11,368 bases of DNA, from the IMG/VR virus record IMGVR_UViG_2547132269_000002, positions 1 through 11,368 of that record, one strand, 5' to 3'. Source of the DNA: a virus. Its lineage: Duplodnaviria; Heunggongvirae; Uroviricota; Caudoviricetes. Below, in pieces: positions 1-11,368 of the stretch; within the stretch, counting starts at the first letter, position 1; each line of letters opens with the position of its first letter. A model generated the notes under the pieces. That model saw only the letters and a list, made by a program, of their open reading frames with translations. It was not told the DNA's origin and ran no database searches. A program made the position numbers and the translations under genes.

Positions 1-265
1 GCGATAATTTTACTCATCATCCTTCACATCAGGCCCTGTAGACAGAGTGGTGATTACTTCTGGAGTGGATTCAGATTAAACATCTCATTGCTAATGTTTG
101 AGGTTAAGCATCTGGCGCGCGGTAAGCGGTTGCGTTGAAATAAGAGCCAGTCCATTACAAATTTCATCAAGCGTTATTGGTAAGGGTGATAATTATGAGA
201 TACCTCTTCACTAAGAGTAATCTTAAGGGTAATGTGTAACCTCACTTTTTAATACGGAGGTTGTA

Positions 266-490
266 ATGTTAGAGAATTATTTCCCTTCAGGAATAGGTGC
301 TCAGCCTGTAACTCAAGCTCAAAAACAGAGGGTTATAGCTGTTCAAGCTGCCCTTGAATTAGTTAAGGCCTCACTTTCTTCTGCAGGTGGTCAGGCTACA
401 AGTGCAAAATTTGAACAGGAATTAAAAGCAGCTATTGGCTTAATTGAACCATTAGCCGATGCCATTCAGAAAGCAATCAGCAAAGAATAA
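266..490 (+). CDS. Small hypothetical protein (74 aa), AT-rich moron-like gene, predicted mostly helical, no signal peptide or TM segment
   Basis: ATG at 266 preceded by GGAGG at 256-260 (5-nt spacer); TAA stop at 488-490. Composition clearly more AT-rich than downstream phage genes. Followed ~105 nt downstream by an intrinsic terminator. Function not recognised. Confidence 0.6.
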   Translation: MLENYFPSGIGAQPVTQAQKQRVIAVQAALELVKASLSSAGGQATSAKFEQELKAAIGLIEPLADAIQKAISKE

Positions 491-595
491 ATAAACCACC
501 TGCATTTTGTTTTATTTCCCAACTAACGGGTGTAATAATCTTAATGTTTCCCGTGGATAGATAAGACAATAAGTATTCACCTTCAAGATATAAAC

Positions 596-622
596 GGGCC
601 TCGCTAATGCGAGGCTTTTTTA
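596..622 (+). terminator. Rho-independent terminator (stem gcctcgc / gcgaggc, loop taat, then TTTTTT)
   Basis: Perfect 7-bp inverted repeat at 598-604 and 609-615, immediately followed by a 6-T run at 616-621. Orientation fits termination of + strand transcription from the small gene at 266..490. Confidence 0.6.
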
Positions 623-656
623 CGCATTGTAAGCGTGCACCAAAGAGGGGATATAA

Positions 657-1007
657 ATGCCACCACGAACCCCAAAAGCCTGCCGTTTTCGCGGTTGCCG
701 CAATACCACTACAGATACGTCAGGCTATTGCGAAAGCCACAAAAGCGAGGGCTGGAAGCAATACAAGCCAGGACAATCCCGTCATCAGCGCGGTTATGGT
801 TCGAAGTGGGACAGTATCCGCGCGGGTGTCCTGAAGCGTGACAAAGGCCTGTGTCAGTTATGTCTGCGTGCTGGTGTGGTGCGTGAGGCGAAAACCGTTG
901 ACCACATCATCCCTAAAGCGCATGGCGGCACTGATGCCGACTGTAATCTGCAGAGTCTGTGCTGGCCGTGTCATAAGGCGAAGACGGCCCGTGAACGACT
1001 TAAGTGA
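657..1007 (+). CDS. HNH homing-type endonuclease, phage packaging-associated (116 aa)
   Basis: ATG at 657 with AGAGGGG upstream. Cys pairs CRFRGC and CQLC...CWPC (zinc-finger-like). HNH core DHIIPKAHGG...NLQSLCWPCHKAKT with His83 codon at 903-905. Sits directly upstream of the small and large terminase genes, as in HK97-like cos phages. Confidence 0.9.
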   Translation: MPPRTPKACRFRGCRNTTTDTSGYCESHKSEGWKQYKPGQSRHQRGYGSKWDSIRAGVLKRDKGLCQLCLRAGVVREAKTVDHIIPKAHGGTDADCNLQSLCWPCHKAKTARERLK

Positions 1008-1033
1008 TAATAATTCTCAACTGTCTGAGGGGA

Positions 1034-1093
1034 GGGGCGGGTCAAATCTCTGTGACCTGACGTCTTCCGGACTGCCCGCCCCATCGTTTTTTT
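1034..1093 (+). other. GC-rich inverted repeat (ggggcggg ... cccgcccc) with internal palindromes, followed by TTTTTTT; candidate terminator or cos/packaging-recognition region
   Basis: Arms at 1034-1041 and 1075-1082 are exact reverse complements separated by a 33-nt loop containing the palindromes gacgtc (1059-1064) and tccgga (1066-1071). A 7-T run at 1087-1093 lies 4 nt after the stem. Located in the HNH to TerS intergenic gap. Confidence 0.35.
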
Positions 1094-1132
1094 ATACCCG
1101 CGAAAAATGAAATTTAACCAGGAGTGCCGCAT

Positions 1133-1627
1133 ATGGCTGGAACGGCGGGGCGTTCCGGGCGTCGCCCCAAGCCAACGGCGCGCAAGGCGCTGGCCGGAAA
1201 CCCCGGAAAGCGAGCCCTGAACAAAGATGAACCCGTTTTTACGCCCATCAAAGGTGTTGAGCCACCGGAGTGGTTCGCTGAAGAAGAGCTCCCTCTCGCC
1301 ACGATCATGTGGCAACTGACAACCAAAGAACTCTGCGGTCAGGGCCTGCTGTGCGTGACTGACCTCGCAGTGCTTGAGCGGTGGTGCGTAGCCTATGAGT
1401 TCTGGCGACGTGCTGTGAAAAATATTGCCAGACAGGGCAACACCATCACCGGTGCAATGGGCGGCATGGTCAAAAATCCGGAGCTGACCGCCAAAAAAGA
1501 ACAGGAGTCCGAGATGAGCAGTACGGGGGCAATGCTCGGACTCGACCCCAGCAGCCGCCAGCGTCTGATTGGCCTGGCGGGGCAGAAGAAAGCCACTAAC
1601 CCGTTTCTGAAAATTATCGAATCATGA
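1133..1627 (+). CDS. Terminase small subunit, P27 family (about 164 aa from ATG 1133)
   Basis: ATG at 1133 preceded by AGGAG at 1120-1124; the in-frame GTG at 1124 used by the ORF track has no spacing for an RBS. Basic N-terminus GRSGRRPKP, then [15 protein letters not shown] and PPEW motifs typical of P27-type small terminases. Stop TGA at 1625-1627 overlaps the ATG of the next gene. Confidence 0.85.
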
Positions 1628-3357
1628 GCCGGAAATCTTACCCCAACGTAAATGCTGCCAATCAGTATGCCCGGGATGTCGTGCGCGGAAAGATTGTGGC
1701 CTGCCAGTTTGTGATTCAGGCCTGCCAGCGCCATCTTGATGACCTGATGGCGGAAAAAAGTAAGTCGTTTCGTTACCGCTTCGACAAGGACCTGGCTGAA
1801 CGGGCCGCCAAATTTATTCAGCTGTTGCCGCACACCAAGGGTGAGTGGGCATTCAAGAGGATGCCCATCACGCTGGAGCCGTGGCTGCTCTTTGTGATCT
1901 GCTGCGCGTTTGGCTGGGTCAATAAAGGCTCCCGGCTGCGCCGCTTCCGGGAGGTGTATACCGAAATCCCCCGTAAGAACGGCAAATCGGCAATCTCTGC
2001 CGGTGTCGCCCTGTATTGTTTTGCCTGTGATAACGAGTTCGGCGCGGAAGTGTATTCCGGTGCCACGACGGAGAAACAGGCATGGGAAGTCTTTCGTCCG
2101 GCAAGACTGATGTGTAAACGCACACCCATGCTGACGGAAGCGTTCGGGATTGAGGTTAACGCCTCAAACATGAATCGTCCGGAGGATGGCGCGCGGTTTG
2201 AACCGCTGATCGGTAACCCCGGTGATGGTTCATCACCCCACTGTGCGGTGGTGGATGAATATCACGAGCACGCCACCGATGCGCTTTACACCACGATGCT
2301 TACCGGGATGGGGGCGCGACGTCAGCCACTGATGTGGGCCATTACTACTGCCGGGTACAACATTGAGGGGCCGTGCTACGACAAGCGACGGGAAGTTATC
2401 GAGATGCTCAACGGGTCGGTACCCAACGATGAACTGTTCGGGATCATCTATACCGTTGACGAAGGCGATGACTGGACCGACCCGCAGGTGCTGGAAAAAG
2501 CTAACCCGAATATTGGCGTGTCGGTTTATCGCGAATTTTTGTTAAGTCAGCAGCAGCGTGCGAAAAATAACGCCCGTCTGGCAAACGTCTTTAAAACAAA
2601 ACACCTCAATATCTGGGTGTCGGCGCGTTCGGCGTATTTCAACCTGGTGAGCTGGCAGAGCTGCGAGGATAAATCACTGACCCTTGAGCAGTTCGAGGGG
2701 CAGCTGTGCATTCTGGCCTTTGACCTGGCGCGTAAGCTGGATATGAACAGCATGGCGCGACTTTATACCCGCGAGATTGACGGTAAAACGCATTACTACA
2801 GTGTGGCCCCGCGTTTCTGGGTACCGTATGACACGGTGTACAGCGTCGAGAAAAATGAAGATCGACGGACAGCCGAACGCTTTCAGAAATGGGTGGAAAT
2901 GGGCGTTCTGACCGTTACCGATGGTGCGGAGGTGGATTATCGCTACATCCTCGAGGAGGCCAAAGCGGCGAACAAAATCAGCCCGGTCAGTGAGTCACCC
3001 ATCGACCCCTTCGGGGCGACCGGGTTGTCACATGACCTTGCTGATGAAGACCTGAACCCCATCACTATCATTCAGAACTACACCAACATGTCCGACCCGA
3101 TGAAAGAGCTGGAAGCGGCAATTGAATCGGGGCGCTTTCATCATGATGGCAATTCCATCATGACCTGGTGTATCGGCAACGTGGTCGGCAAAACCATTCC
3201 GGGTAACGATGATGTGGTGAAGCCCGTCAAAGAGCAGGCGGAAAACAAAATCGATGGTGCAGTTGCGCTGATTATGGCGGTTGGCAGAGCCATGCTGTAC
3301 GAGAAAGAAGACACGCTGTCTGACCACATTGAGTCCTATGGGATCCGCTCGCTTTAA
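1624..3357 (+). CDS. Terminase large subunit (577 aa), ATPase plus nuclease
   Basis: Walker A-like P-loop IPRKNGKS at nt 1969-1989. Walker B-like VVDEYHE at nt 2248-2268. Length and position immediately after TerS, with ATGA overlap. Intact ORF. Confidence 0.95.
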
Positions 3358-3368
3358 CTGAGGTAATT

Positions 3369-3551
3369 ATGATCATGCTGATTCTCGCGCCTTTGGTGGG
3401 CGTGCTGGGGGCGCTTTTGCTGGCGTATGGTGCCTGGCTGATTTATCCCCCGGCGGGGTTTGTTGTTGCTGGGGCGTTGTGCCTGTTCTGGTCGTGGCTG
3501 GTGGCGCGATATCTCGACCGTACACAGTCGTCTGTCGGCGGAGGTAAATAG
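3369..3551 (+). CDS. Small hydrophobic protein (60 aa) with two predicted transmembrane helices, function unknown
   Basis: ATG at 3369 with GAGG 7 nt upstream. Two hydrophobic stretches ([26 protein letters not shown] and [16 protein letters not shown]) separated by PPAG. TAG stop at 3549-3551 overlaps the GTG start of the next ORF. Confidence 0.6.
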
Positions 3552-4909
3552 TGTTCTTTTCGGGATTATTTCAACGAAAAAGTGACGCACCGGTGACCAC
3601 GCCAGCAGAGCTGGCGGATGCTATCGGGTTGTCCTACGACACCTATACCGGAAAGCAGATCAGCAGCCAGCGGGCCATGCGACTGACGGCGGTTTTTTCC
3701 TGTGTCAGGGTGCTGGCGGAGTCGGTCGGGATGTTGCCCTGCAACCTGTATCACCTGAACGGCAGCCTGAAGCAGAGAGCCACTGGCGAACGTCTGCATA
3801 AGCTGATCTCCACGCATCCCAATGGCTATATGACGCCGCAGGAGTTCTGGGAGCTGGTGGTCACCTGTCTGTGCCTGCGGGGAAACTTTTACGCCTACAT
3901 TGAGCTGAAACGTCCGGCAGGTGGTGCGCAAAATAAACTGGCCACCGAGCATAAAGAAGCGTTTGTGGGCTTCCTGCGTAAAGGCCGTGAAGATGGTCTG
4001 CGCGATCTGGAGCGCAAGGCATTACAGGTGGGCACCGATGAAGACGGTGGCTATGCCGTGCCGGAAGCGCTGGATCGCAACATTCTGACCTTGCTGAAAG
4101 ATGAAGTGGTGATGCGCCAGGAAGCCGCGGTGATCACCGTTGGCGGTTCCGACTACAAAAAACTGGTGAATCTGGGCGGCACGGCTTCCGGATGGGGTGG
4201 CGAGACTGACGCGCGCTCCCAGACTGCCACCTCCAGACTGGGGCTGATTGAACCTTTCATGGGGGAAATCTACGGTAACCCGCAGGCCACCCAGAAAATG
4301 CTGGATGATGCCTTTTTCAACGTGGAGGCCTGGATCAACAGCGAGCTGGCAACCGAATTTGCCGAACAGGAAGAAATTGCCTTTACCACCGGCGATGGTA
4401 CCAAGAAGCCGAAAGGGTTCCTGGCGTATGAATCCACTGATGAAACCGATAAGGTCCGGGCGTTCGGCAAACTTCAGCATATTGTATCCGGCGACGCGAC
4501 TGCGGTGACCGCAGACGCCATTATCAAACTGATTTACACGCTGCGAAAGGCACACCGCACCGGCGCGAAGTTCATGATGAACAACAACAGCCTGTTTGCC
4601 ATCCGTTTGCTGAAAGACAGCGAGGGTAACTATCTGTGGCGTCCGGGGCTGGAACTGGGGCAGCCGTCCTCTCTGGCGGGTTACGGTATCGCTGAAAACG
4701 AACAGATGCCGGATATCGCCGCTGATGCGAAAGCCATTGCATTTGGTAACTTCAAACGGGGTTACACCATCGTTGACCGTATCGGCACCCGCATTCTGCG
4801 TGACCCGTACACCAATAAACCGTTTGTCGGTTTTTATACAACCAAGCGCACCGGCGGGATGCTGGTCGATTCGCAGGCCATCAAACTGCTGAAGATTGCT
4901 GCGGCGTAA
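3551..4909 (+). CDS. Chimeric ORF: portal protein N-terminal fragment (~125 aa) fused in frame to an HK97-fold major capsid protein (~325 aa); probable deletion product
   Basis: GTG start at 3551 with GGAGG at 3540-3544. Residues ~40-120 carry the portal N-terminal signature (AMRLTAVFSCVRVLAESVGMLP ... HPNGYMTPQEFWEL ... LRGNFYAYIE). From about nt 3910-3950 the sequence switches to capsid-type motifs (EAFVGFLRKG, GGYAVPE, TGDGTKKPKGFL, LRDPYTNKPFVGFYTTKRTGG, AIKLLKIAAA). No prohead protease or scaffold gene between them. Confidence 0.8.
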   Translation: MFFSGLFQRKSDAPVTTPAELADAIGLSYDTYTGKQISSQRAMRLTAVFSCVRVLAESVGMLPCNLYHLNGSLKQRATGERLHKLISTHPNGYMTPQEFWELVVTCLCLRGNFYAYIELKRPAGGAQNKLATEHKEAFVGFLRKGREDGLRDLERKALQVGTDEDGGYAVPEALDRNILTLLKDEVVMRQEAAVITVGGSDYKKLVNLGGTASGWGGETDARSQTATSRLGLIEPFMGEIYGNPQATQKMLDDAFFNVEAWINSELATEFAEQEEIAFTTGDGTKKPKGFLAYESTDETDKVRAFGKLQHIVSGDATAVTADAIIKLIYTLRKAHRTGAKFMMNNNSLFAIRLLKDSEGNYLWRPGLELGQPSSLAGYGIAENEQMPDIAADAKAIAFGNFKRGYTIVDRIGTRILRDPYTNKPFVGFYTTKRTGGMLVDSQAIKLLKIAAA

Positions 4910-4916
4910 TCATTCA

Positions 4917-4936
4917 GGGGCGCGGAACCGCGCCCC
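4917..4936 (+). terminator. GC-rich hairpin just after the capsid stop (ggggcgcgg aa ccgcgcccc), weak T-tract; possible partial terminator or mRNA-stabilising stem-loop
   Basis: 9-bp perfect inverted repeat at 4917-4925 and 4928-4936 with a 2-nt loop, 8 nt after the TAA at 4907-4909. The downstream run ctgttctg is not a canonical U-tract. Confidence 0.4.
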
Positions 4937-4958
4937 CTGTTCTGACGGGTGAAGAATC

Positions 4959-5159
4959 ATGATCCTGAAACAAGATCTGAAATGGTCACCGGACGGTATG
5001 CGTGTTGAGGTCATTCGGGCCGGTGAGTATGACGACGGGGCGCTTCCTGCCCGGGTGCAGGAGATTGCACTTCAGGCCGGGTTAGCAGAGCGCGGAACCA
5101 GTGCAAAAAGCAGTAAAGCGGCAAAAGAGAAAAAAGCCACGACCAGTAAAGAGGGCTGA
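4959..5159 (+). CDS. Hypothetical small protein (66 aa) with Lys/Ser-rich C-terminal tail
   Basis: ATG at 4959, weak RBS. Sits between the capsid and head-tail connector genes. C-terminus SAKSSKAAKEKKATTSKEG. Stop 2 nt before the next gene start. No family recognised. Confidence 0.5.
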   Translation: MILKQDLKWSPDGMRVEVIRAGEYDDGALPARVQEIALQAGLAERGTSAKSSKAAKEKKATTSKEG

Positions 5160-5161
5160 GT

Positions 5162-5485
5162 ATGCTTCTGACAATGGAAGAGATTAAAGCCCAACTCCGG
5201 CTGGATGAGGATTTCGATGCTGATGACCGCCATCTGCAACTGCTGGCCTGTGCGGCGCAAAAGCGGACGGAAACGTATCTGAACCGGAAGCTCTATGCAC
5301 CGGATGAATCCATTCCGGACAGCGATCCGGACGGGCTGCACCTGCCGGATGATATTCGTCTGGGGATGCTGATGCTTATCAGCCATTTTTACGAAAACCG
5401 CTCGTCGGTTACGGAAGTGGAAAAACTCGACATGCCGCAGAGTTTTGGCTGGCTTGTCGGCCCGTACAGGTACTTTCCGCAATGA
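5162..5485 (+). CDS. Head-tail connector protein, gp6-like (107 aa)
   Basis: ATG at 5162 with AAGAGGG upstream. N-terminal pattern LTMEEIKAQLRLDEDFDADD...LQLLACAA resembles gp6-like connector/DNA-packaging proteins. Follows the capsid gene. ATGA overlap with the next gene. Confidence 0.75.
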   Translation: MLLTMEEIKAQLRLDEDFDADDRHLQLLACAAQKRTETYLNRKLYAPDESIPDSDPDGLHLPDDIRLGMLMLISHFYENRSSVTEVEKLDMPQSFGWLVGPYRYFPQ

Positions 5486-5892
5486 AAATTCGTCAGGCGC
5501 AGATCAGCGCAACCTACATTCTGCCGGACCCCGGTGAACTGAATAAACGCGTCCTGATCCGCCTGCGGGTGGATATGCCCGCGGATAACTTTGGCGTGGA
5601 GCCTCAATACCCGGTTACGTTCTGGACATGGGCGAAGGTTATCCAGACCAGTGCCACCACCTGGCAGGAAACCGCGCAGACCGGGGACGCCATCACCCAT
5701 TACATCACCATTCGTTACCGCCGGGGGATCACCGCTGATTATGAGGTGGTCTGTGATGACAGTGTGTACCGGGTGAAACGTCAGCGCGATCTGAACGGGG
5801 CGCGGCGCTTTCTGCTGCTGGAGTGTACGGAGCTGGGCGAATTTACGCAGAGTCACGGAGGCAGCAATGGCGACTCCCTTTTTTCACGTTGA
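5482..5892 (+). CDS. Head-tail joining (head closure / adaptor) protein (136 aa)
   Basis: Pattern RVLIRLRV ... FWTWAKVIQ ... AQTGDAITHYITIRYRRGI ... YRV ... LLECTE fits the phage head-tail joining family. Position after the gp6-like gene. Confidence 0.75.
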   Translation: MKIRQAQISATYILPDPGELNKRVLIRLRVDMPADNFGVEPQYPVTFWTWAKVIQTSATTWQETAQTGDAITHYITIRYRRGITADYEVVCDDSVYRVKRQRDLNGARRFLLLECTELGEFTQSHGGSNGDSLFSR

Positions 5893-6373
5893 TGTTCAGC
5901 AGCCCGCGGAGATGCGCTTTAACCGCGCCCGTGTCCGGCGGGCGTTTGTCACGATTGGTCAGCGTCATATGCGTGATGCCCGTCGGCTGGTGATGCGCCG
6001 TGCGCGGTCGGCACCGGGTGAAAACCCCGGTTATCAGACCGGACGCTTGGCTCGTTCGATTGGTTACATGGTGCCGGGAGCCAGTAAAAAGCGAGTCGGT
6101 TTTATGACACGCATTGCCCCTAACCAGCGCAACGGGAGGGGGAACCGGATGATCTCTGGTGACTTCTATCCGGCGTTTCTGTTTTTTGGTGTCCGGGGAG
6201 GAGCAAAACGTCGTCACAGTCATCATCGTGGTGCATCCGGTGGCAGCGGCTGGCGACTGGCTCCACGTAATAACTTCATGGTGGAAACGCTTGAAAAGAA
6301 CCGCAGCTGGACACGCTATTTTCTGGCGCGGGAATTACGTAAATCACTGAAGCCGGAGCGACGACGCAGATGA
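5867..6373 (+). CDS. Neck / tail-completion protein, HK97 gp10-like by pattern (168 aa), Arg-rich C-terminus
   Basis: ATG at 5867 with GGAGG at 5857-5861; overlaps the previous gene by 26 nt. Assignment rests on gene order and loose motif resemblance (GYQTGRLARSI, FYPAFLFFG). Confidence 0.5.
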   Translation: MATPFFHVDVQQPAEMRFNRARVRRAFVTIGQRHMRDARRLVMRRARSAPGENPGYQTGRLARSIGYMVPGASKKRVGFMTRIAPNQRNGRGNRMISGDFYPAFLFFGVRGGAKRRHSHHRGASGGSGWRLAPRNNFMVETLEKNRSWTRYFLARELRKSLKPERRRR

Positions 6374-6930
6374 AACTGACGCCTGTTATTGCTGCGCTGC
6401 GTGCCCGCTGCCCGTATTTTGAAAACCGGGTGGCAGGTGCGGCACAGTTCAAAAATCTGCCGGAGGTCGGAAAGCTGAAACTCCCGGCGGCGTATGTGGT
6501 ACCGGGTGATGACTCTCCTGGAGAAAACAAAAGCCAGACCGACTACTGGCAGGAGCTGAAAGAGGGCTTCTCCGTGGTTGTCATACTGAGTAACGGGCGT
6601 GATGAGCGCGGTCAGTTTGCCTCGTATGATGTGGTGGACGATGTCCGGCAGATGCTCTTTAAGGCCCTGCTGAGCTGGAACCCGGAAGCGTGCGGTAACC
6701 CGATTACCTATGACGGCGGCACGCTGCTGGATCTGAATCGTCATGAGCTGATTTATCAGTTCGATTTTTCGGTCATCAGCGAGCTGACCGAAGACGATAC
6801 CCGCCAGCAGGATGATCTGAACAGTCTGGATGAACTGCAAACGCTGGCGATTGATGTTGATTATCTCGAGCCCGGTAACGGGCCTGACGGCGATATCGAA
6901 CATCACACCGAAATAACCCTTCCTTCCTGA
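6370..6930 (+). CDS. Mu gp36/gp37-like tail-associated protein (186 aa) with acidic C-terminal region
   Basis: ATGA overlap with the upstream gene. Lies just upstream of the gp38-like gene and the tail sheath start, as in Mu-like tail modules. Family assignment is by position and loose resemblance. Confidence 0.5.
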   Translation: MKLTPVIAALRARCPYFENRVAGAAQFKNLPEVGKLKLPAAYVVPGDDSPGENKSQTDYWQELKEGFSVVVILSNGRDERGQFASYDVVDDVRQMLFKALLSWNPEACGNPITYDGGTLLDLNRHELIYQFDFSVISELTEDDTRQQDDLNSLDELQTLAIDVDYLEPGNGPDGDIEHHTEITLPS

Positions 6931-6938
6931 GGATCCTC

Positions 6939-7109
6939 ATGTTTGTCAAACCTGTTAAAGGGCGGTCAGTGCCTGACCCTGCCCGCGGCGACCTTTTGCC
7001 CGCCGAAGGGCGAAATGTTGACGAGAACAACTACTGGCTGCGCCGTGAAGCAGCGGGTGATATCCGGCGCGTGAATAAAAAGGTGAACACCGATGACGAT
7101 AAGCTTTAA
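6939..7109 (+). CDS. Small Mu gp38-like protein (56 aa, DUF2635-like)
   Basis: Not in the ORF track (below length cutoff); found by reading the sequence. ATG at 6939 with GAGGA at 6929-6933; TAA stop at 7107-7109. Protein MFVKPVKGRSVPDPARGDLLPAEGRNVDENNYWLRREAAGDIRRVNKKVNTDDDKL. Lies directly upstream of the sheath start codon. Confidence 0.55.
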   Translation: MFVKPVKGRSVPDPARGDLLPAEGRNVDENNYWLRREAAGDIRRVNKKVNTDDDKL

Positions 7110-7224
7110 CACCATTCCGTCGAATACGCTGGTTCCGTTGTTTTATGCGGAAATGGATAACCAGGCGGCGAATAAACACCCGCGCAGAGCACTGGCTGGC
7201 CTTCCGTCACGCATCCGGCACTGA
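7093..7224 (+). pseudogene. Tail sheath gene, N-terminal fragment only (43 codons, ~27 sheath-like then out-of-context tail)
   Basis: ATG at 7093 with AAGGTG upstream. Translation MTISFNTIPSNTLVPLFYAEMDN matches the conserved N-terminus of Mu-type sheath proteins, but a TGA stop follows at 7222-7224. The ~450-aa sheath body is absent. Confidence 0.6.
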
Positions 7225-7574
7225 ACAATGCACCGGCGGTGAAAAGCACGGTTGACCTGCCAACGTGGGAAGAACTGACTGACATTCGCGACACACTGAA
7301 TACGGCAATTGATAAGGAGTTGTCCCGTACAACCAGTGATGCGCTGTTTCTGGCGCTGCGCCGGGTGAAAGCAGATCTGAATGCGGATATCAACACGCGC
7401 CTTGAACAGTCTGCACGGATCATTCAGCGCACGCCGGATGAGGTTTTACCCGCGCTGGTGCTGGCGGCGACCTGGTTTGATAACGCGGCGCGTGACGGGG
7501 ACATTATCCGGCGTAATGCCATTACGCATCCCGGCTTTGTGCCGGTGATCCCTCTGAAGGTGCCAGTGCAATGA
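7176..7574 (+). pseudogene. 3' remnant of the gene upstream of the baseplate hub (probably Mu gp43/N-like DNA circularisation protein); no ATG start or RBS
   Basis: Frame opens after the TAA at 7173-7175 and runs to the TGA at 7572-7574, which overlaps the ATG of the hub gene (caATGAac). First possible start is a GTG at 7239 with no RBS. 133 open codons against an expected ~400-500 aa for this gene. Confidence 0.5.
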
Positions 7575-8650
7575 ACGATAACGTCACGCTACGGGTAAAT
7601 GGCCGGGAGTGGAATGGCTGGACATCGGTGCGCATCGGTGCCGGTGTTGAACGACTGGCGCGGGATTTCAGTGTGGAGATCACTCGCCAGTGGCCGGGAG
7701 ATGAGGGTATCACCACGCTTCAGCCGCGCATTAAAAACGGTTCAAAAGTGGAAGTGCTGATTGGTGATGAGCTGGTGATCACCGGCTGGGTGGAGGCGAC
7801 TCCCGTTCGTTACGATGCCCGTTCGGTCAGCACCGGTATTGCCGGACGTAGTCTGACGGCTGACCTGATTGACTGTGCAGCCGAACCGACACAGTTTAAC
7901 GGACGCTCGCTGGTGCAGATTGCGCAGGCGCTTGCTGCGCCTTTCGGCATTGAGGTGGTGAACAGCGGTGCGCCGTCGGGTGTTATTCCTGATGTTCAGC
8001 CTGATCACGGTGAAACGGTGATTGAGGTAATCAACAAAATACTCGGTCAGCAGCAGGCGCTGGCTTACGACGACCCGTACGGCAGGCTGGTGATTGGCGG
8101 TATTGGCTCAACGCGGGCACATACCGCGCTGGTACTTGGGGAAAACATCCTTTCCTGTGATACGGAGAAGAGTATCCGGGAGCGGTTTTCTGTTTACCAG
8201 GTGGCGGGGCAGCGTGCCGGAAACGACGATGATTTCGGTGAGGCCACCACCACCGCGCTGCGGGCCCGCACAGAGGACGCATTTATTGCCCGTTACCGTC
8301 CGATGTATATCAGGCAGACAGGGCAGCCCACGGGGGCAGGCTGTATTGCGCGTGCTGACTTTGAAGCCCGACAACGGGCGGCGCGGACGGATGAAACCAC
8401 CTATGTGGTGCAGGGCTGGCGACAGGGTAACGGTACGCTGTGGCAGCCCAACCAGCGGGTGATTGTCTTCGATCCGGTCTGTGGTTTCGACAATACCGAA
8501 CTGCTTGTCTCGGAAGTCACGTTTACTCAGGACCAGAACGGCACCCTGACGGAAATCCGTGTCGGCCCGCCTGATGCTTATCTGCCTGAACCCGAAGCCC
8601 CCGGCGCGCGGGAAAAGAAAAAAGCCAGAGTACAGGAGGACCCGTTCTGA
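7571..8650 (+). CDS. Baseplate hub protein, Mu gpP (gp44)-like (359 aa)
   Basis: ATG at 7571 overlapping the upstream stop. Size and position match; N-terminal pattern LRVNGREWNGWTSVRIGAGVERLARDFSVEIT. Followed by the gp45-like and gp46-like genes in canonical order. Confidence 0.8.
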   Translation: MNDNVTLRVNGREWNGWTSVRIGAGVERLARDFSVEITRQWPGDEGITTLQPRIKNGSKVEVLIGDELVITGWVEATPVRYDARSVSTGIAGRSLTADLIDCAAEPTQFNGRSLVQIAQALAAPFGIEVVNSGAPSGVIPDVQPDHGETVIEVINKILGQQQALAYDDPYGRLVIGGIGSTRAHTALVLGENILSCDTEKSIRERFSVYQVAGQRAGNDDDFGEATTTALRARTEDAFIARYRPMYIRQTGQPTGAGCIARADFEARQRAARTDETTYVVQGWRQGNGTLWQPNQRVIVFDPVCGFDNTELLVSEVTFTQDQNGTLTEIRVGPPDAYLPEPEAPGAREKKKARVQEDPF

Positions 8651-9198
8651 TGAGGACGATTGAAGCCATGCAGCGACAACTTCTCGGCCTGATTGGGCGG
8701 GCAGTGGTGAAAAGCATCAGTGCCGCCACGAAATGTCAGACCGTGGATGTGTCCCTGATTGCCGGTGAATCCAAAGCCGGGGTTGAACATCTTGAACCCT
8801 ACGGTTTTACCGCAAGGGCAAACAGCGGTGCGGAAGCGGTGGTGTTGTTTCCGGATGGCGACCGTTCTCATGCGGTGGTTGTTACGGTGTCGGACCGGCG
8901 CTACCGCCTGAAAGGGCTGCAGACGGGTGAGGTGGCTGTCTATGACGATCAGGGGCAGTCCGTGACGCTGACCCGGGAGGGGATCGTGGTGGACGGTGCA
9001 GGTAAAACGATCACGTTTCACAATGCGCCTAAGGCACGTTTTGAAATGGACCTGGAGGTGACCGGACAGGTGAAAGACCTGTGCGACTCCGGCGGCACCG
9101 CCATGTCAGCGATGCGGCTTGCCTATAACGGGCATCGTCACAGAGAGAACGGTCAGGGCAGTAACACCGACAAACCTGATAAAGCGATGGAGGCATGA
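8650..9198 (+). CDS. Baseplate spike / assembly protein V, Mu gp45-like (182 aa)
   Basis: TGATG overlap with the hub gene. Pattern GLIGRAVV ... GESKAGVEHLEPYGFTA ... GEVAVYDDQGQSVTL typical of gpV-like spike proteins. Canonical position. Confidence 0.8.
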   Translation: MRTIEAMQRQLLGLIGRAVVKSISAATKCQTVDVSLIAGESKAGVEHLEPYGFTARANSGAEAVVLFPDGDRSHAVVVTVSDRRYRLKGLQTGEVAVYDDQGQSVTLTREGIVVDGAGKTITFHNAPKARFEMDLEVTGQVKDLCDSGGTAMSAMRLAYNGHRHRENGQGSNTDKPDKAMEA

Positions 9199-9623
9199 TG
9201 GAAGTGTGGCTGACGGTGAACGGTAAATGCACCTGCGCCAGCGCACCGCTGGATCCGCTGACCCGCGCCGTGGTGATTTCTCTGTTTACCTGGCGGCGGG
9301 CGGAGCCTGATGACAATGCCGACGTCCCGATGGGATGGTGGGGGGATACCTGGCCTGCGGTACAGAATGACCGTTACGGTTCCCGACTGTGGCTGCTTCA
9401 ACGCAGCAAACTGACCAATCAACTGGTGCAGACGGTAAGGGGGTATATCCGCGAATGCCTGCAATGGATGATTGATGACGGCGTGGTGTCCCGTATTGAT
9501 CTGGATATCCGCCGCACCGGGATTAATGAACTGGGTAACAGTATCACTCTCTGGCGTCGTGACGGACCGGTAATGATTTCTTTTGATGATCTGTGGAGTG
9601 CGATAACGCATGGCGGACAGTGA
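9195..9623 (+). CDS. Mu gp46-like baseplate protein (142 aa)
   Basis: ATGA overlap with the gp45-like gene. Size and position between the spike and J-like genes. Confidence 0.75.
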
Positions 9624-11061
9624 ATTTCAGCGCCCGACGCTGGCAGAAAATATCAGTATGCTCCGTAACGATTTATTCGCCAGGCTGGACGTCAGCGACA
9701 CGCTCCGGCGCATGGATGAAGACGTGCGGGCAAAGGTGTATGCGGCGGCGCTGCATACGGTTTACGGGTACATCGATTATCTGGCAATGAACATGCTGCC
9801 TGACCTGTGCGATGAGTCCTGGCTGGCGCGACATGCTGCGATGAAACGGTGTCCGCGCAAGGGGGCCACGGCTGCCAGCGGGTATATGCGCTGGGAAGGT
9901 GTCAGCGATGGCCTGAAGGTGACCGCCGGGAGTGTTATTCAGCGCGATGACCTGGTTCAGTACACGGCAACTGCCGATGCAACCAGCTCCGGTGGTGTCC
10001 TGCGCGTGCCGATCGCCTGCTCAAGTGCAGGCGCGGTCGGTAACGCTGACGACGGTACGTCATTAATCCTGGTCACGCCGGTTAATGGTCTGCCGTCTTC
10101 CGGCGTGGCAGATACCCTGACAGGTGGATTTGATACTGAAGAGCTGGAAACGTGGCGCGCCCGCGTCATTGAGCGGTATTACTGGACGCCTCAGGGCGGA
10201 GCTGACGGGGACTATGTCGTCTGGGCTAAAGAAGTGCCCGGCATTACCCGCGCATGGACATACCGTCACTGGATGGGAACGGGAACTGTCGGTGTGATGA
10301 TTGCCAGCAGTGACCTGATTAATCCCATTCCGGAAGAATCAACGGAAACGGCAGCAAGACAACATATCGGGCCACTGGCCCCGGTGGCAGGCTCTGATTT
10401 GTATGTGTTCAGGCCGGTGGCGCATAAAGTGGATTTTCATATCCGCGTGACGCCGGACACACCGGAAATACGGGCTGCCATTACCGCGGAGTTGCGTTCG
10501 TTCCTGCTGCGTGATGGTTATCCGCAGGGAGAACTGAAGGTATCGCGTATCAGTGAGGCGATTTCCGGTGCGGCACCGTCATTAACCCGTGTTCATCAGC
10601 GTGCGGATGCCCTGATGCGGGAGCTGGATCCGCGCACCACCACTGAACTGATAAACCGCTGGGAGCGTCTGTGCGGTCTGCCGGATGAATGTATTCCGGC
10701 GGGAACGCAGACCCTTCGCCAGCGTCAGCAACGGCTGGATGCGAAGGTTAACCTGGCGGGCGGCATCAACGAGGATTTTTATCTTGCACAGCTTGCTGCC
10801 CTGGGCAGACCAGATGCCACCATCACGCGATACGACAAAAGCACGTTCACCTGCTCATCGGCCTGTACTGACGCGGTGAATGCGCCAGAATGGCGGTATT
10901 GCTGGCAGGTCAACATGCCAACCACCACCAACACCACCTGGATGACATGTGGCGATCCCTGTGATTCCGCACTGCGTATCTGGGGTGACACCGTTGTCGA
11001 GTGTGTGCTTAACAAACTCTGCCCGTCGCATACCTACGTAATTTTTAAATATCCGGAGTAA
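9610..11061 (+). CDS. Baseplate J-like protein (Mu gp47-like, ~320 aa) continuous with a gp48 / P2 gpI-like tail protein domain (~160 aa) in one 483-aa ORF
   Basis: ATG at 9610; single uninterrupted frame to TAA at 11059-11061. The N-terminal ~320 aa look J-like. From about nt 10560-10620 ([24 protein letters not shown] ...) the sequence resembles the N-terminal region of gp48/DUF2313-type proteins, which are normally a separate downstream gene. Confidence 0.75.
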
Positions 11062-11064
11062 TCC

Positions 11065-11368
11065 ATGCATCGTATAGACACGAAAACCGCGCAGAAGGAT
11101 AAGTTCGGCGCGGGTAAGAACGGTTTTACCCGTGGTAACCCCCAGACCGGCACACCTGCCACCGATCTGGATGATGACTACTTTGACATGTTGCAGGAGG
11201 AGCTTTGCAGCGTGGTGGAGGCATCCGGTGCCAGTCTTGAGAAGACGCGGCACGACCAGCTGCTTACCGCGCTTCGTGCGCTGCTGTTAAGCCGCAAGAA
11301 TCCGTTTGGCGATATCAAATCGGATGGCACCGTGAAAACGGCTCTCGAAAACCTTGGTTTGGGAGAAG
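11065..11368 (+). CDS. Tail fiber protein, conserved N-terminal (baseplate-attachment) domain; 3' end lies beyond the window
   Basis: Not in the ORF track (open at window end). ATG at 11065 with GGAG at 11055-11058. Translation [67 protein letters not shown]..., an N-terminus I recognise from tail fibers of enterobacterial Mu/P2-like tail modules. Confidence 0.75.

Follow-up and report, generated by a model that had tools for sequence, protein, structure and literature searches.

Three deletions in the late region of a probable defective SfV-like prophage from the Escherichia albertii lineage

The stretch of DNA considered here (hereafter the window: all 11,368 nucleotides of the Caudoviricetes record IMGVR_UViG_2547132269_000002 in IMG/VR) is very probably the late region, encoding packaging and virion functions, of a defective SfV-like prophage of the Escherichia albertii lineage, marked by three deletions that followed integration. 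At the level of sequence, our comparisons show descent from an SfII/SfI-type phage by three precise deletions in at least two steps, with the loss of genes that every viable relative carries. The structural region measures 11.4 kb in the window against 18.3-18.9 kb in intact relatives, with 6,919 bp missing. Judging from this gene content, no virion would be expected from the locus: a head could presumably not assemble because the portal ring, the protease and the N-terminal domain of the capsid protein are gone, and a tail could presumably not assemble because sheath, tube and tape measure are gone.

The deletions were mapped by local BLAST of the window against phage SfII and the prophage of Escherichia coli NH-21, read together with their annotation. 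Four collinear blocks account for the window:

Window 1-3899: NH-21 segment 3001-6899, followed by a gap of 1731 bp
Window 3900-7174: NH-21 segment 8631-11905, followed by a gap of 5006 bp
Window 7175-10572: NH-21 segment 16912-20309, followed by a gap of 182 bp
Window 10557-11360: NH-21 segment 20476-21279, the last block

The first junction (J1), between positions 3899 and 3900, marks the loss of 1731 bp comprising portal codons 117-413 (297 amino acids), the whole S78 prohead protease gene of the HK97 family and capsid codons 1-65. The deletion is in frame (1731 = 3 x 577, with both breakpoints in codon phase 1) and joins portal residues 1-116 to capsid residues 66-401. In the resulting open reading frame (ORF) of 452 amino acids, the Pfam portal model is matched over positions 2-75 of 321 at residues 47-120, and the capsid model over positions 1-280 of 280 at residues 166-449; no protease gene was found with Pfam in the window. 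The join shows no microhomology, even when compared with a 99.8%-identical E. albertii copy in which this region is undeleted.

At the second junction (J2), between 7174 and 7175, 5006 bp were lost: the sheath gene from codon 28, the genes for the tube, the tail assembly protein or chaperone and the tape measure, and some 310 N-terminal codons of the DNA-circulation gene. This deletion is out of frame, and no base is shared at the join. The sheath ORF (7093-7224) begins MTISFNTIPSNTLVPLFYAEMDNQAAN and shifts frame after 27 native codons before reaching a stop; residues 3-26 of this stub are 62% identical over 24 amino acids to the Mu sheath protein L (tblastn). Three quarters of the DNA-circulation gene is missing, and only its C-terminal 130 or so codons are left.

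The third junction (J3) falls within 10557-10572, where 182 bp are absent, so that gp47 lacks its final 31 codons and gp48 its first 32. Its product fuses residues 1-321 of gp47 (Baseplate J) to residues 33-194 of gp48 (YmfQ), with the repeat pair GGCGATTtCCGGTGCG / GGCGATTgCCGGTGCG at the join; a deletion of this length (182 mod 3 = 2) leaves the fusion in frame because gp47 and gp48 overlap in different frames. The deletion is flanked by imperfect 16-nucleotide (nt) direct repeats, GGCGATTTCCGGTGCG and GGCGATTGCCGGTGCG, and the alignment blocks on either side overlap by 16 nt.

The window thus falls short both of the full HK97-family complement of head genes (portal, S78 protease, capsid) and of the full Mu-type complement of contractile-tail genes (sheath, tube, chaperone, tape measure, gp43-gp48). 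An earlier reading of the same DNA from its letters and ORFs (the original prediction) had treated both modules as complete, and the gaps of 1731, 5006 and 182 bp show both to be broken. The gene families and the order which it listed are real, as judged by Pfam, but its separate portal and capsid genes are one 452-amino-acid ORF, its sheath gene is a 43-codon stub, and its J-like and gp48-like genes are one ORF of 483 amino acids.

The same junctions recur in other E. albertii material. The window is identical to one whole contig of sample ERR200287 (Logan contig ERR200287_311, also held at NCBI, and common to four samples). All three junctions occur in contig JAQAMS010000051.1 of assembly GCA_027566395.1, 100% identical to the window, and in a contig of SRR3574322 that is 99.89% identical. 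In the 90% cluster of the portal-capsid fusion protein, the second member is labelled 'phage major capsid protein [Escherichia albertii]' and has three NCBI accessions. The closed chromosome CP030787.2 (4,659,709 bp), which belongs to E. albertii 2013C-4143 (ST7960, isolated from a human in 2013; PMC10673567), encodes the gp47-gp48 fusion and the 111-amino-acid DNA-circulation fragment. Its copy of the region is 99.8% identical to the window and has J2 and J3 without J1, the portal (413 amino acids), protease (216) and capsid (401) genes being intact; SRR8355577 is in the same state. Copies with J2 and J3 alone therefore stand beside copies with all three junctions in a nested series, which argues for stepwise decay with J1 last. 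As expected of a defective prophage, essential genes of a functional lineage have been lost from a copy fixed in a chromosome: the sister copy is chromosomal and the junctions are found in several isolates.

These observations suggest the following history. The parent would have been a lambdoid temperate myovirus of the SfII/SfI/SfIV type, with an HNH-cos-TerS-TerL packaging module, head genes of the HK97 family, and contractile-tail and baseplate genes of the Mu family. After integration it would have undergone three independent deletions, J2 and J3 first and J1 later in a sub-lineage, which together would have removed or truncated the portal, prohead protease, capsid N-terminus, sheath, tube, tail chaperone, tape measure and DNA-circulation protein, and fused gp47 to gp48. 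J3 probably arose by slippage or recombination between the 16-nt direct repeats, and J1 and J2 by blunt, homology-independent illegitimate joining. The present state would be that of a cryptic remnant under relaxed selection.

Beyond E. albertii the three junctions differ in their distribution. Probes of 200 bp spanning J1 and J2 gave no single-piece match in 5,426 complete E. coli genomes, while among the matches listed for the J3 probe in the same genomes all span 382 bp, the undeleted length. An exact J1 29-mer had no match in the GTDB species-representative genomes, a set evidently without these strains. The 382-bp undeleted version of the gp47-gp48 region occurs in all 12 of the 12 isolated phages which have this region, consistent with J3 being disabling. 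The 483-amino-acid fusion with the identical J3 junction is found in gtr-adjacent prophage remnants of Shigella flexneri (for example AFGW01000014.1, 3874-3889) and is annotated in some E. coli; the S. flexneri copies, at only 97.7% identity to the window, are without J2. Single-nucleotide polymorphisms around J3 in the window, S. flexneri VA-6, NH-21 and SfII revealed no shared local haplotype, and J3 must therefore be either an old allele or one that has arisen more than once at the 16-nt repeat.

Substitution counts bear on the constraint acting on the remnant. Among the E. albertii copies there are 14 nonsynonymous and 11 synonymous substitutions, a comparison of 25 sites only in which recent polymorphism inflates the ratio. 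The window differs from the intact NH-21 prophage by 60 nonsynonymous and 155 synonymous substitutions (Fisher p=0.006 against the counts among E. albertii copies) and from SfII by 39 and 138 (p=0.001). The counts are compatible with relaxed constraint, bearing in mind the small numbers and the inflation just mentioned. All ORFs outside the three lesions have the lengths seen in SfII and NH-21, which implies that the decay is recent.

Several considerations weigh against a simple history of decay. Of the three deletions, two preserve the reading frame, and all 15 other ORFs remain full length, including those of the HNH-cos-TerS-TerL unit and the baseplate genes, which may hint at retained function. 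At one third each, the probability of at least two in-frame deletions is about one in four, and the frames are thus well inside what is expected by chance. The raised ratio of nonsynonymous to synonymous changes could come in part from recent, slightly deleterious polymorphisms, which are commonly in excess, rather than from loss of function. Lastly, the contig stops at both sides, so that in the strain of the window the rest of the prophage is out of view.

Retained function is the basis of one alternative, improbable in our estimation, in which the remnant has been domesticated: its fusion proteins would act as dominant-negative poisons of assembly against superinfecting SfV-like phages, or its HNH-cos-TerS-TerL unit would allow packaging by a helper, in the manner of a cos-type satellite. 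The two in-frame fusions among otherwise full-length ORFs, and the intact cos and terminase genes, are what such a role would call for. Unrelated E. coli remnants repeatedly keep baseplate and fibre genes while losing the sheath-to-tape-measure region, and the same J3 allele is met in S. flexneri, E. coli and E. albertii. Yet nonsynonymous changes among remnant copies are raised relative to synonymous ones, not lowered, J1 is limited to a few near-identical assemblies, and two in-frame events of three carry the one-in-four expectation given above. J3 lies on a 16-nt repeat and could recur without selection, and mobility is argued against by the 2013C-4143 remnant, which is cut by insertion sequences (IS) and retains integrase fragments only. 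Stated in its specific form, namely that the portal(1-116)-capsid(66-401) and gp47-gp48 fusions, expressed from the late operon, poison incoming SfV-like assembly, or that the cos and terminase cassette is packaged by a helper, exaptation appears very unlikely; if true, the fusions would constitute an abortive-assembly defence encoded by a prophage remnant.

We also considered a phage satellite, or an element like the cos-type phage-inducible chromosomal islands (PICI), and rejected it. Only cos and the terminase genes recall such elements, the rest being ordinary SfV-like structural genes, and the IS-disrupted ends and integrase fragments at the 2013C-4143 sister locus also count against it.

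That the deletions are artefacts of short-read assembly, for instance a contig collapsed or chimeric across related prophages, deserves a hearing since the window is a complete short-read contig whose two ends, in the lysis region and the tail-fibre N-terminus, consist of sequence that occurs repeatedly in prophages. J1 and J2, however, share no bases at the join and thus offer no k-mer overlap to cause a mis-join. The same junctions are found in independent assemblies from different pipelines and samples, J2 and J3 stand in the closed chromosome CP030787.2, and the members of the J1 fusion-protein cluster carry several NCBI accessions. As there is no overlap at J1 or J2, and as the junctions are met again in separately made assemblies, one of them a closed genome, we regard mis-assembly as ruled out for practical purposes and its probability as very small.

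The picture implicit in the original prediction, an intact and functional SfV-like prophage whose mosaic is its notable feature, draws on named families that are all detectable in the expected order and on 97% DNA identity to viable phages, but is exceedingly improbable given a structural region 7 kb shorter than in every viable relative, the disappearance of protease, tube, chaperone and tape measure, a portal of 116 amino acids, a sheath of 27 codons, and a mosaic common to the whole published lineage.

With the defective prophage as the preferred reading, the content of the window can be set out in full. Assignments come from Pfam and PHROG scans of the window ORFs, with lengths compared to those in SfII and the E. 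coli NH-21 prophage. The + strand carries every substantial ORF:

266-490, +: 74-amino-acid ORF, function unassigned, moron-like (phrog_5901, E=8e-29; 'hypothetical' in E. coli NH-21)
598-621, +: terminator-like hairpin, GCCTCGC-TAAT-GCGAGGC followed by TTTTTT, read in the sequence between the 74-amino-acid ORF and HNH (a hairpin scan lists 598-615)
657-1007, +: HNH endonuclease, packaging accessory of HK97-type cos phages, intact (PF01844, E=5e-15; 116 amino acids, as in NH-21)
1073-1082, +: cohesive-end (cos) sequence TGCCCGCCCC, an exact match to the 10-nt cos of SfI
1133-1627, +: TerS, P27 family, intact (PF05119, Terminase_4, E=2e-21; 164 amino acids, as in SfII and NH-21)
1624-3357, +: TerL, HK97-related, intact (TerL_ATPase and TerL_nuclease; tblastn to HK97 gp2, E=2e-26)
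3369-3551, +: YmfR-like membrane protein of 60 amino acids (phrog_502, E=2.5e-28; ymfR in NH-21)
3551-4909, +: portal-capsid fusion ORF, 452 amino acids (Pfam portal and capsid models in one ORF)
4959-5159, +: conserved 66-amino-acid ORF 3' of the capsid gene (phrog_1020, E=1.5e-44)
5162-5485, +: gp6-like head-tail adaptor (Ad1), intact (PF05135; phrog_40, the same as HK97 gp6)
5482-5892, +: head-closure or head-completion protein (Hc1), intact (PF05521, E=4e-20; phrog_25, the same as HK97 gp7)
5867-6373, +: Neck1/tail-completion protein, 168 amino acids (phrog_879, E=4e-93; no Pfam match)
6370-6930, +: tail terminator, 186 amino acids (PF23840, E=4e-25; phrog_209), the positional equivalent of Mu gp37
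6939-7109, +: DUF2635 protein, homologue of Mu gp38 and the first clearly Mu-like gene (PF10948, E=1e-16; tblastn to Mu gp38, 42% identity, E=1e-11)
7093-7224, +: tail-sheath stub (27 native codons, 16 out-of-frame codons and a stop)
7175-7574, +: 3' remnant of the DNA-circulation gene, like Mu gp43/N (residual ORF 7239-7574, 111 amino acids, GTG start; phrog_17109 positions 94-204 of 204; tblastn to the Mu gp43 C-terminus)
7571-8650, +: baseplate hub, like Mu gp44/P, intact (GpP-like domains 1, 2 and 4; 35% identity to Mu gp44, E=4e-53)
8650-9198, +: Mu gp45-like baseplate spike/assembly protein V, intact (PF06890; tblastn to Mu, E=6e-18)
9198-9623, +: Mu gp46-like baseplate wedge protein, intact (PF07409, E=6e-33; tblastn to Mu, E=4e-15)
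9610-11061, +: gp47-gp48 fusion ORF, 483 amino acids (Pfam Baseplate_J and Mu_Gp48 in one ORF)
11065-11368, +: tail fibre, StfP-like, first 101 codons, running off the contig end (phrog_1396, E=2e-53)

Despite the wrecked head genes, the HNH-cos-TerS-TerL unit is wholly intact, and packaging of the SfI cos type is indicated by its sequence. The 10-nt cos gap of phage SfI is the same sequence (PMC3636060). In the window, cos sits in the interval that separates the end of HNH at 1007 from the beginning of TerS at 1133, and the linear genomes of SfV and SfIV begin at window position 1066 and that of SfI at about 1084, directly flanking 1073-1082. The combination of HNH and cos in packaging is common to HK97.

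The head-tail design of the window was examined by tblastn of every window protein, along with full-length NH-21 versions of the deleted genes, against the genomes of HK97 and Mu. HK97 was matched only by TerL (E=2e-26), the portal (1e-54 at full length, 5e-11 for the fragment), the NH-21 protease (6e-24) and the capsid (approximately 1e-7 to 3e-7), and these, with the connectors placed through PHROGs 40 and 25, make up an HK97-like head module. Mu was matched only by, in order, gp38 (1e-11), sheath L (4e-84 with the full-length NH-21 protein), gp43, gp44 (4e-53), gp45 (6e-18), gp46 (4e-15), gp47 (3e-34) and gp48 (4e-10), a collinear Mu-like tail module; the Mu head genes were unmatched. The HK97-like head and Mu-like tail of the original prediction are thus borne out. 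Its head-tail boundary at around 5867-6930 agrees with our own placement of the ancestral join between 5892 and 6939, which follows from the failure of ORFs 5867-6373 and 6370-6930 to match either HK97 or Mu by tblastn. When these two ORFs were compared with Mu gp36 and gp37 and HK97 gp10 and gp11 by tblastn, Pfam and PHROGs, no significant link emerged, the sole signal being a sub-threshold match to Pfam Gp37 (PF09646, E=0.05). Mu gp37 itself belongs to PF08873 and phrog_490 (positions 11955-12503 of the Mu segment examined), as opposed to PF23840 and phrog_209 for the window's tail terminator. The 'gp37/gp38-like' label used previously therefore holds for gp38 by homology, and for gp37 by position and role only.

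An observation on annotation belongs here. PHROGs 209 and 490, as well as the RefSeq product name of Mu gp37, say 'portal protein', yet the proteins concerned are small (approximately 185 amino acids) and encoded just 5' of the sheath gene. The label looks like a propagated annotation error.

The mosaic, in turn, is inherited by the whole SfV-like lineage and is therefore not new. The best homologues of head and tail genes alike come from this one lineage (SfII, SfI, SfIV and intact E. coli prophages), the outcome that the original prediction had named as its own refutation. The joining of head and tail modules is not to be seen as an event in the window itself. The 'SfV-like' phages have been treated as a distinct group of lambdoid Myoviridae (PMC3603311), and SfI, SfII, SfIV and SfV have contractile tails and HK97-family head proteins and are related to e14 (PMC3636060; PMC3851460). 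According to the passages of PMC3603311 and PMC3851460 that cite it, the SfV genome paper (Allison et al. 2002) marks the point since which the HK97-head/Mu-tail combination has been group-defining; the SfV RefSeq record carries the remark 'similar to phage Mu GP38/GpL/N/P/GP45-48'. The head and tail architecture of the window is hence already known and represents no new design, and a decayed copy of it is ordinary.

Recent exchanges among the relatives map elsewhere, to window positions 3277-3296 and 5161-5369. Between these limits, SfV and coliphage SKA5 show no nucleotide similarity to the window (the TerL 3' end, portal, protease, capsid and orf66), whereas on the shared flanks they are 92-98% identical to it; both alleles of this head cassette are of the HK97 family. 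High identity between phage 118970_sal3 and the window ends at 5597. Such exchanges were already noted in the SfI and SfIV papers (PMC3636060; PMC3851460).

By megablast against phage records, the window is 96.6-97.2% identical to vB_EcoM-720R4, SfII, SfI, SfIV and SfV, in four to five pieces distributed over approximately 17.2-18.3 kb of phage sequence. Complete E. coli genomes matching at least 80% of the window number 802, and the best of these are 97-98% identical in four collinear pieces over 18.3-18.9 kb. Identity and synteny are thus those of an SfV-like element, in the group of lambdoid myoviruses that takes in SfV, SfII, SfI, SfIV, ST64B and phiP27, and the previous attribution to SfV and e14 relatives was right, at 96-97% DNA identity.

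SfII, SfI, SfIV, SfV and vB_EcoM-720R4/689R6 share the window's gene order and HK97-head/Mu-tail design, with cos as in SfI. They differ in being viable, with full portal, protease, capsid, sheath, tube, tape measure, gp47 and gp48 genes, while SfV and SKA5 additionally carry another HK97-family cassette from the TerL 3' end to orf66, equivalent to window positions 3277-5160 or thereabouts. Unlike the serotype-converting Sf phages, the window includes no gtr or integrase region. The K-12 element e14 is a defective derivative of the same lineage which, after internal deletions, keeps ymfR, an N-terminal portal fragment, baseplate J/ymfQ and tail-fibre genes. The e14-like remnants of E. coli differ from the window in their breakpoints, and the window's host lineage is E. 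albertii. The names ymfR, ymfQ and stfP, used in RefSeq for NH-21 homologues of window genes, are those of e14, and SfI proteins are reported as 94-100% identical to 'e14' (PMC3636060).

Salmonella phages ST64B and 118970_sal3 have the same layout, an HK97-type head followed by DUF2635, sheath, tube, tape measure and a Mu-type baseplate (for ST64B as judged by the pattern of matches); SKA5 likewise shares the head-then-Mu-tail layout. ST64B and 118970_sal3 are 85-96% identical in DNA over window 654-5597 and 65-79% in the tail half, and their structural sets are complete. In the 77-kb record of 118970_sal3 (NC_031940.1), an attR is annotated at 11917-12177 of the segment examined, inside the head module: the gene that follows TerL lies on one side of it and a portal gene shortened to 963 nt on the other. 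This suggests that the record concatenates or interrupts prophage sequence. HK97 is a more distant relative, with TerL, portal, protease (in the undeleted relative) and capsid homologous at 25-36% identity and the gp6 and gp7 connectors in PHROGs 40 and 25; it differs in its lambda-like non-contractile tail, no gene of which matches the window. Mu offers collinear homologues of gp38, sheath L, gp43, gp44/P, gp45, gp46, gp47 and gp48 at 28-62% identity, but no match to head or packaging genes, has gp36 and gp37 in other Pfam families and PHROGs, and is transposable rather than lambdoid and cos-packaged.

The sister locus in 2013C-4143 provides a view beyond the window's ends. Upstream of the structural genes are found Dam, RusA, KilA-N, DUF968, antiterminator Q, holin, endolysin and Rz genes, with an IS3-family element at the left edge. 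Downstream come the tail-fibre gene and genes for tail-fibre assembly, which point in either direction and are accompanied by a resolvase-type invertase; a GIY-YIG protein gene, IS1, integrase fragments and a second IS3-family copy are also found there. The remnant is bracketed by the two IS3-family copies, each with a 217-amino-acid rve ORF (positions 11456-20927 and 1-923 of the segments examined). Its invertible tail-fibre segment with an invertase may be compared to G/Gin of Mu and Pin of e14. The locus is a typical cryptic prophage.

At the window's left end, the stretch 1-656, comprising the 74-amino-acid ORF and the hairpin, resembles a moron placed between the lysis cassette and HNH; the intact NH-21 prophage has it too. 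The 74-amino-acid ORF lies in a low-GC (guanine plus cytosine) stretch, the GC content being 0.40 over positions 1-500. No tRNA genes were found in the window, and an Rfam scan of it returned no family at or above the gathering score. Promoter-like sites in the window (3) are fewer than the 6.8 expected from shuffled sequences.

Other remnants show similar losses. In several unrelated E. coli remnants, the region from sheath to tape measure and the DNA-circulation gene has been lost or disrupted by different events: a frameshift in one form, a tail-terminator::DNA_circ fusion in another, and in a third host or other genes standing in its place. These remnants keep the hub, gp45, gp46, gp47, gp48 and fibre genes, which is also the pattern of retention in the window and in e14. 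E. coli ChlosBP-23-1 (NZ_CP048603.1) harbours an independent remnant with partial portal, protease and capsid pseudogenes within approximately 900 bp (segment 6001-6648), in a prophage with the cytolethal distending toxin genes cdtABC downstream.

The significance of these results beyond annotation hygiene is probably small. Annotation at the level of families or domains would misread the window as a complete virion module, and its chimeric ORFs are labelled 'major capsid protein' and 'baseplate J/gp47 family protein' in databases. For E. albertii, the isolates appear to offer a small and clean case of stepwise prophage decay, from copies with J2 and J3 to copies with J1, J2 and J3, and the three junctions could be used as lineage markers.

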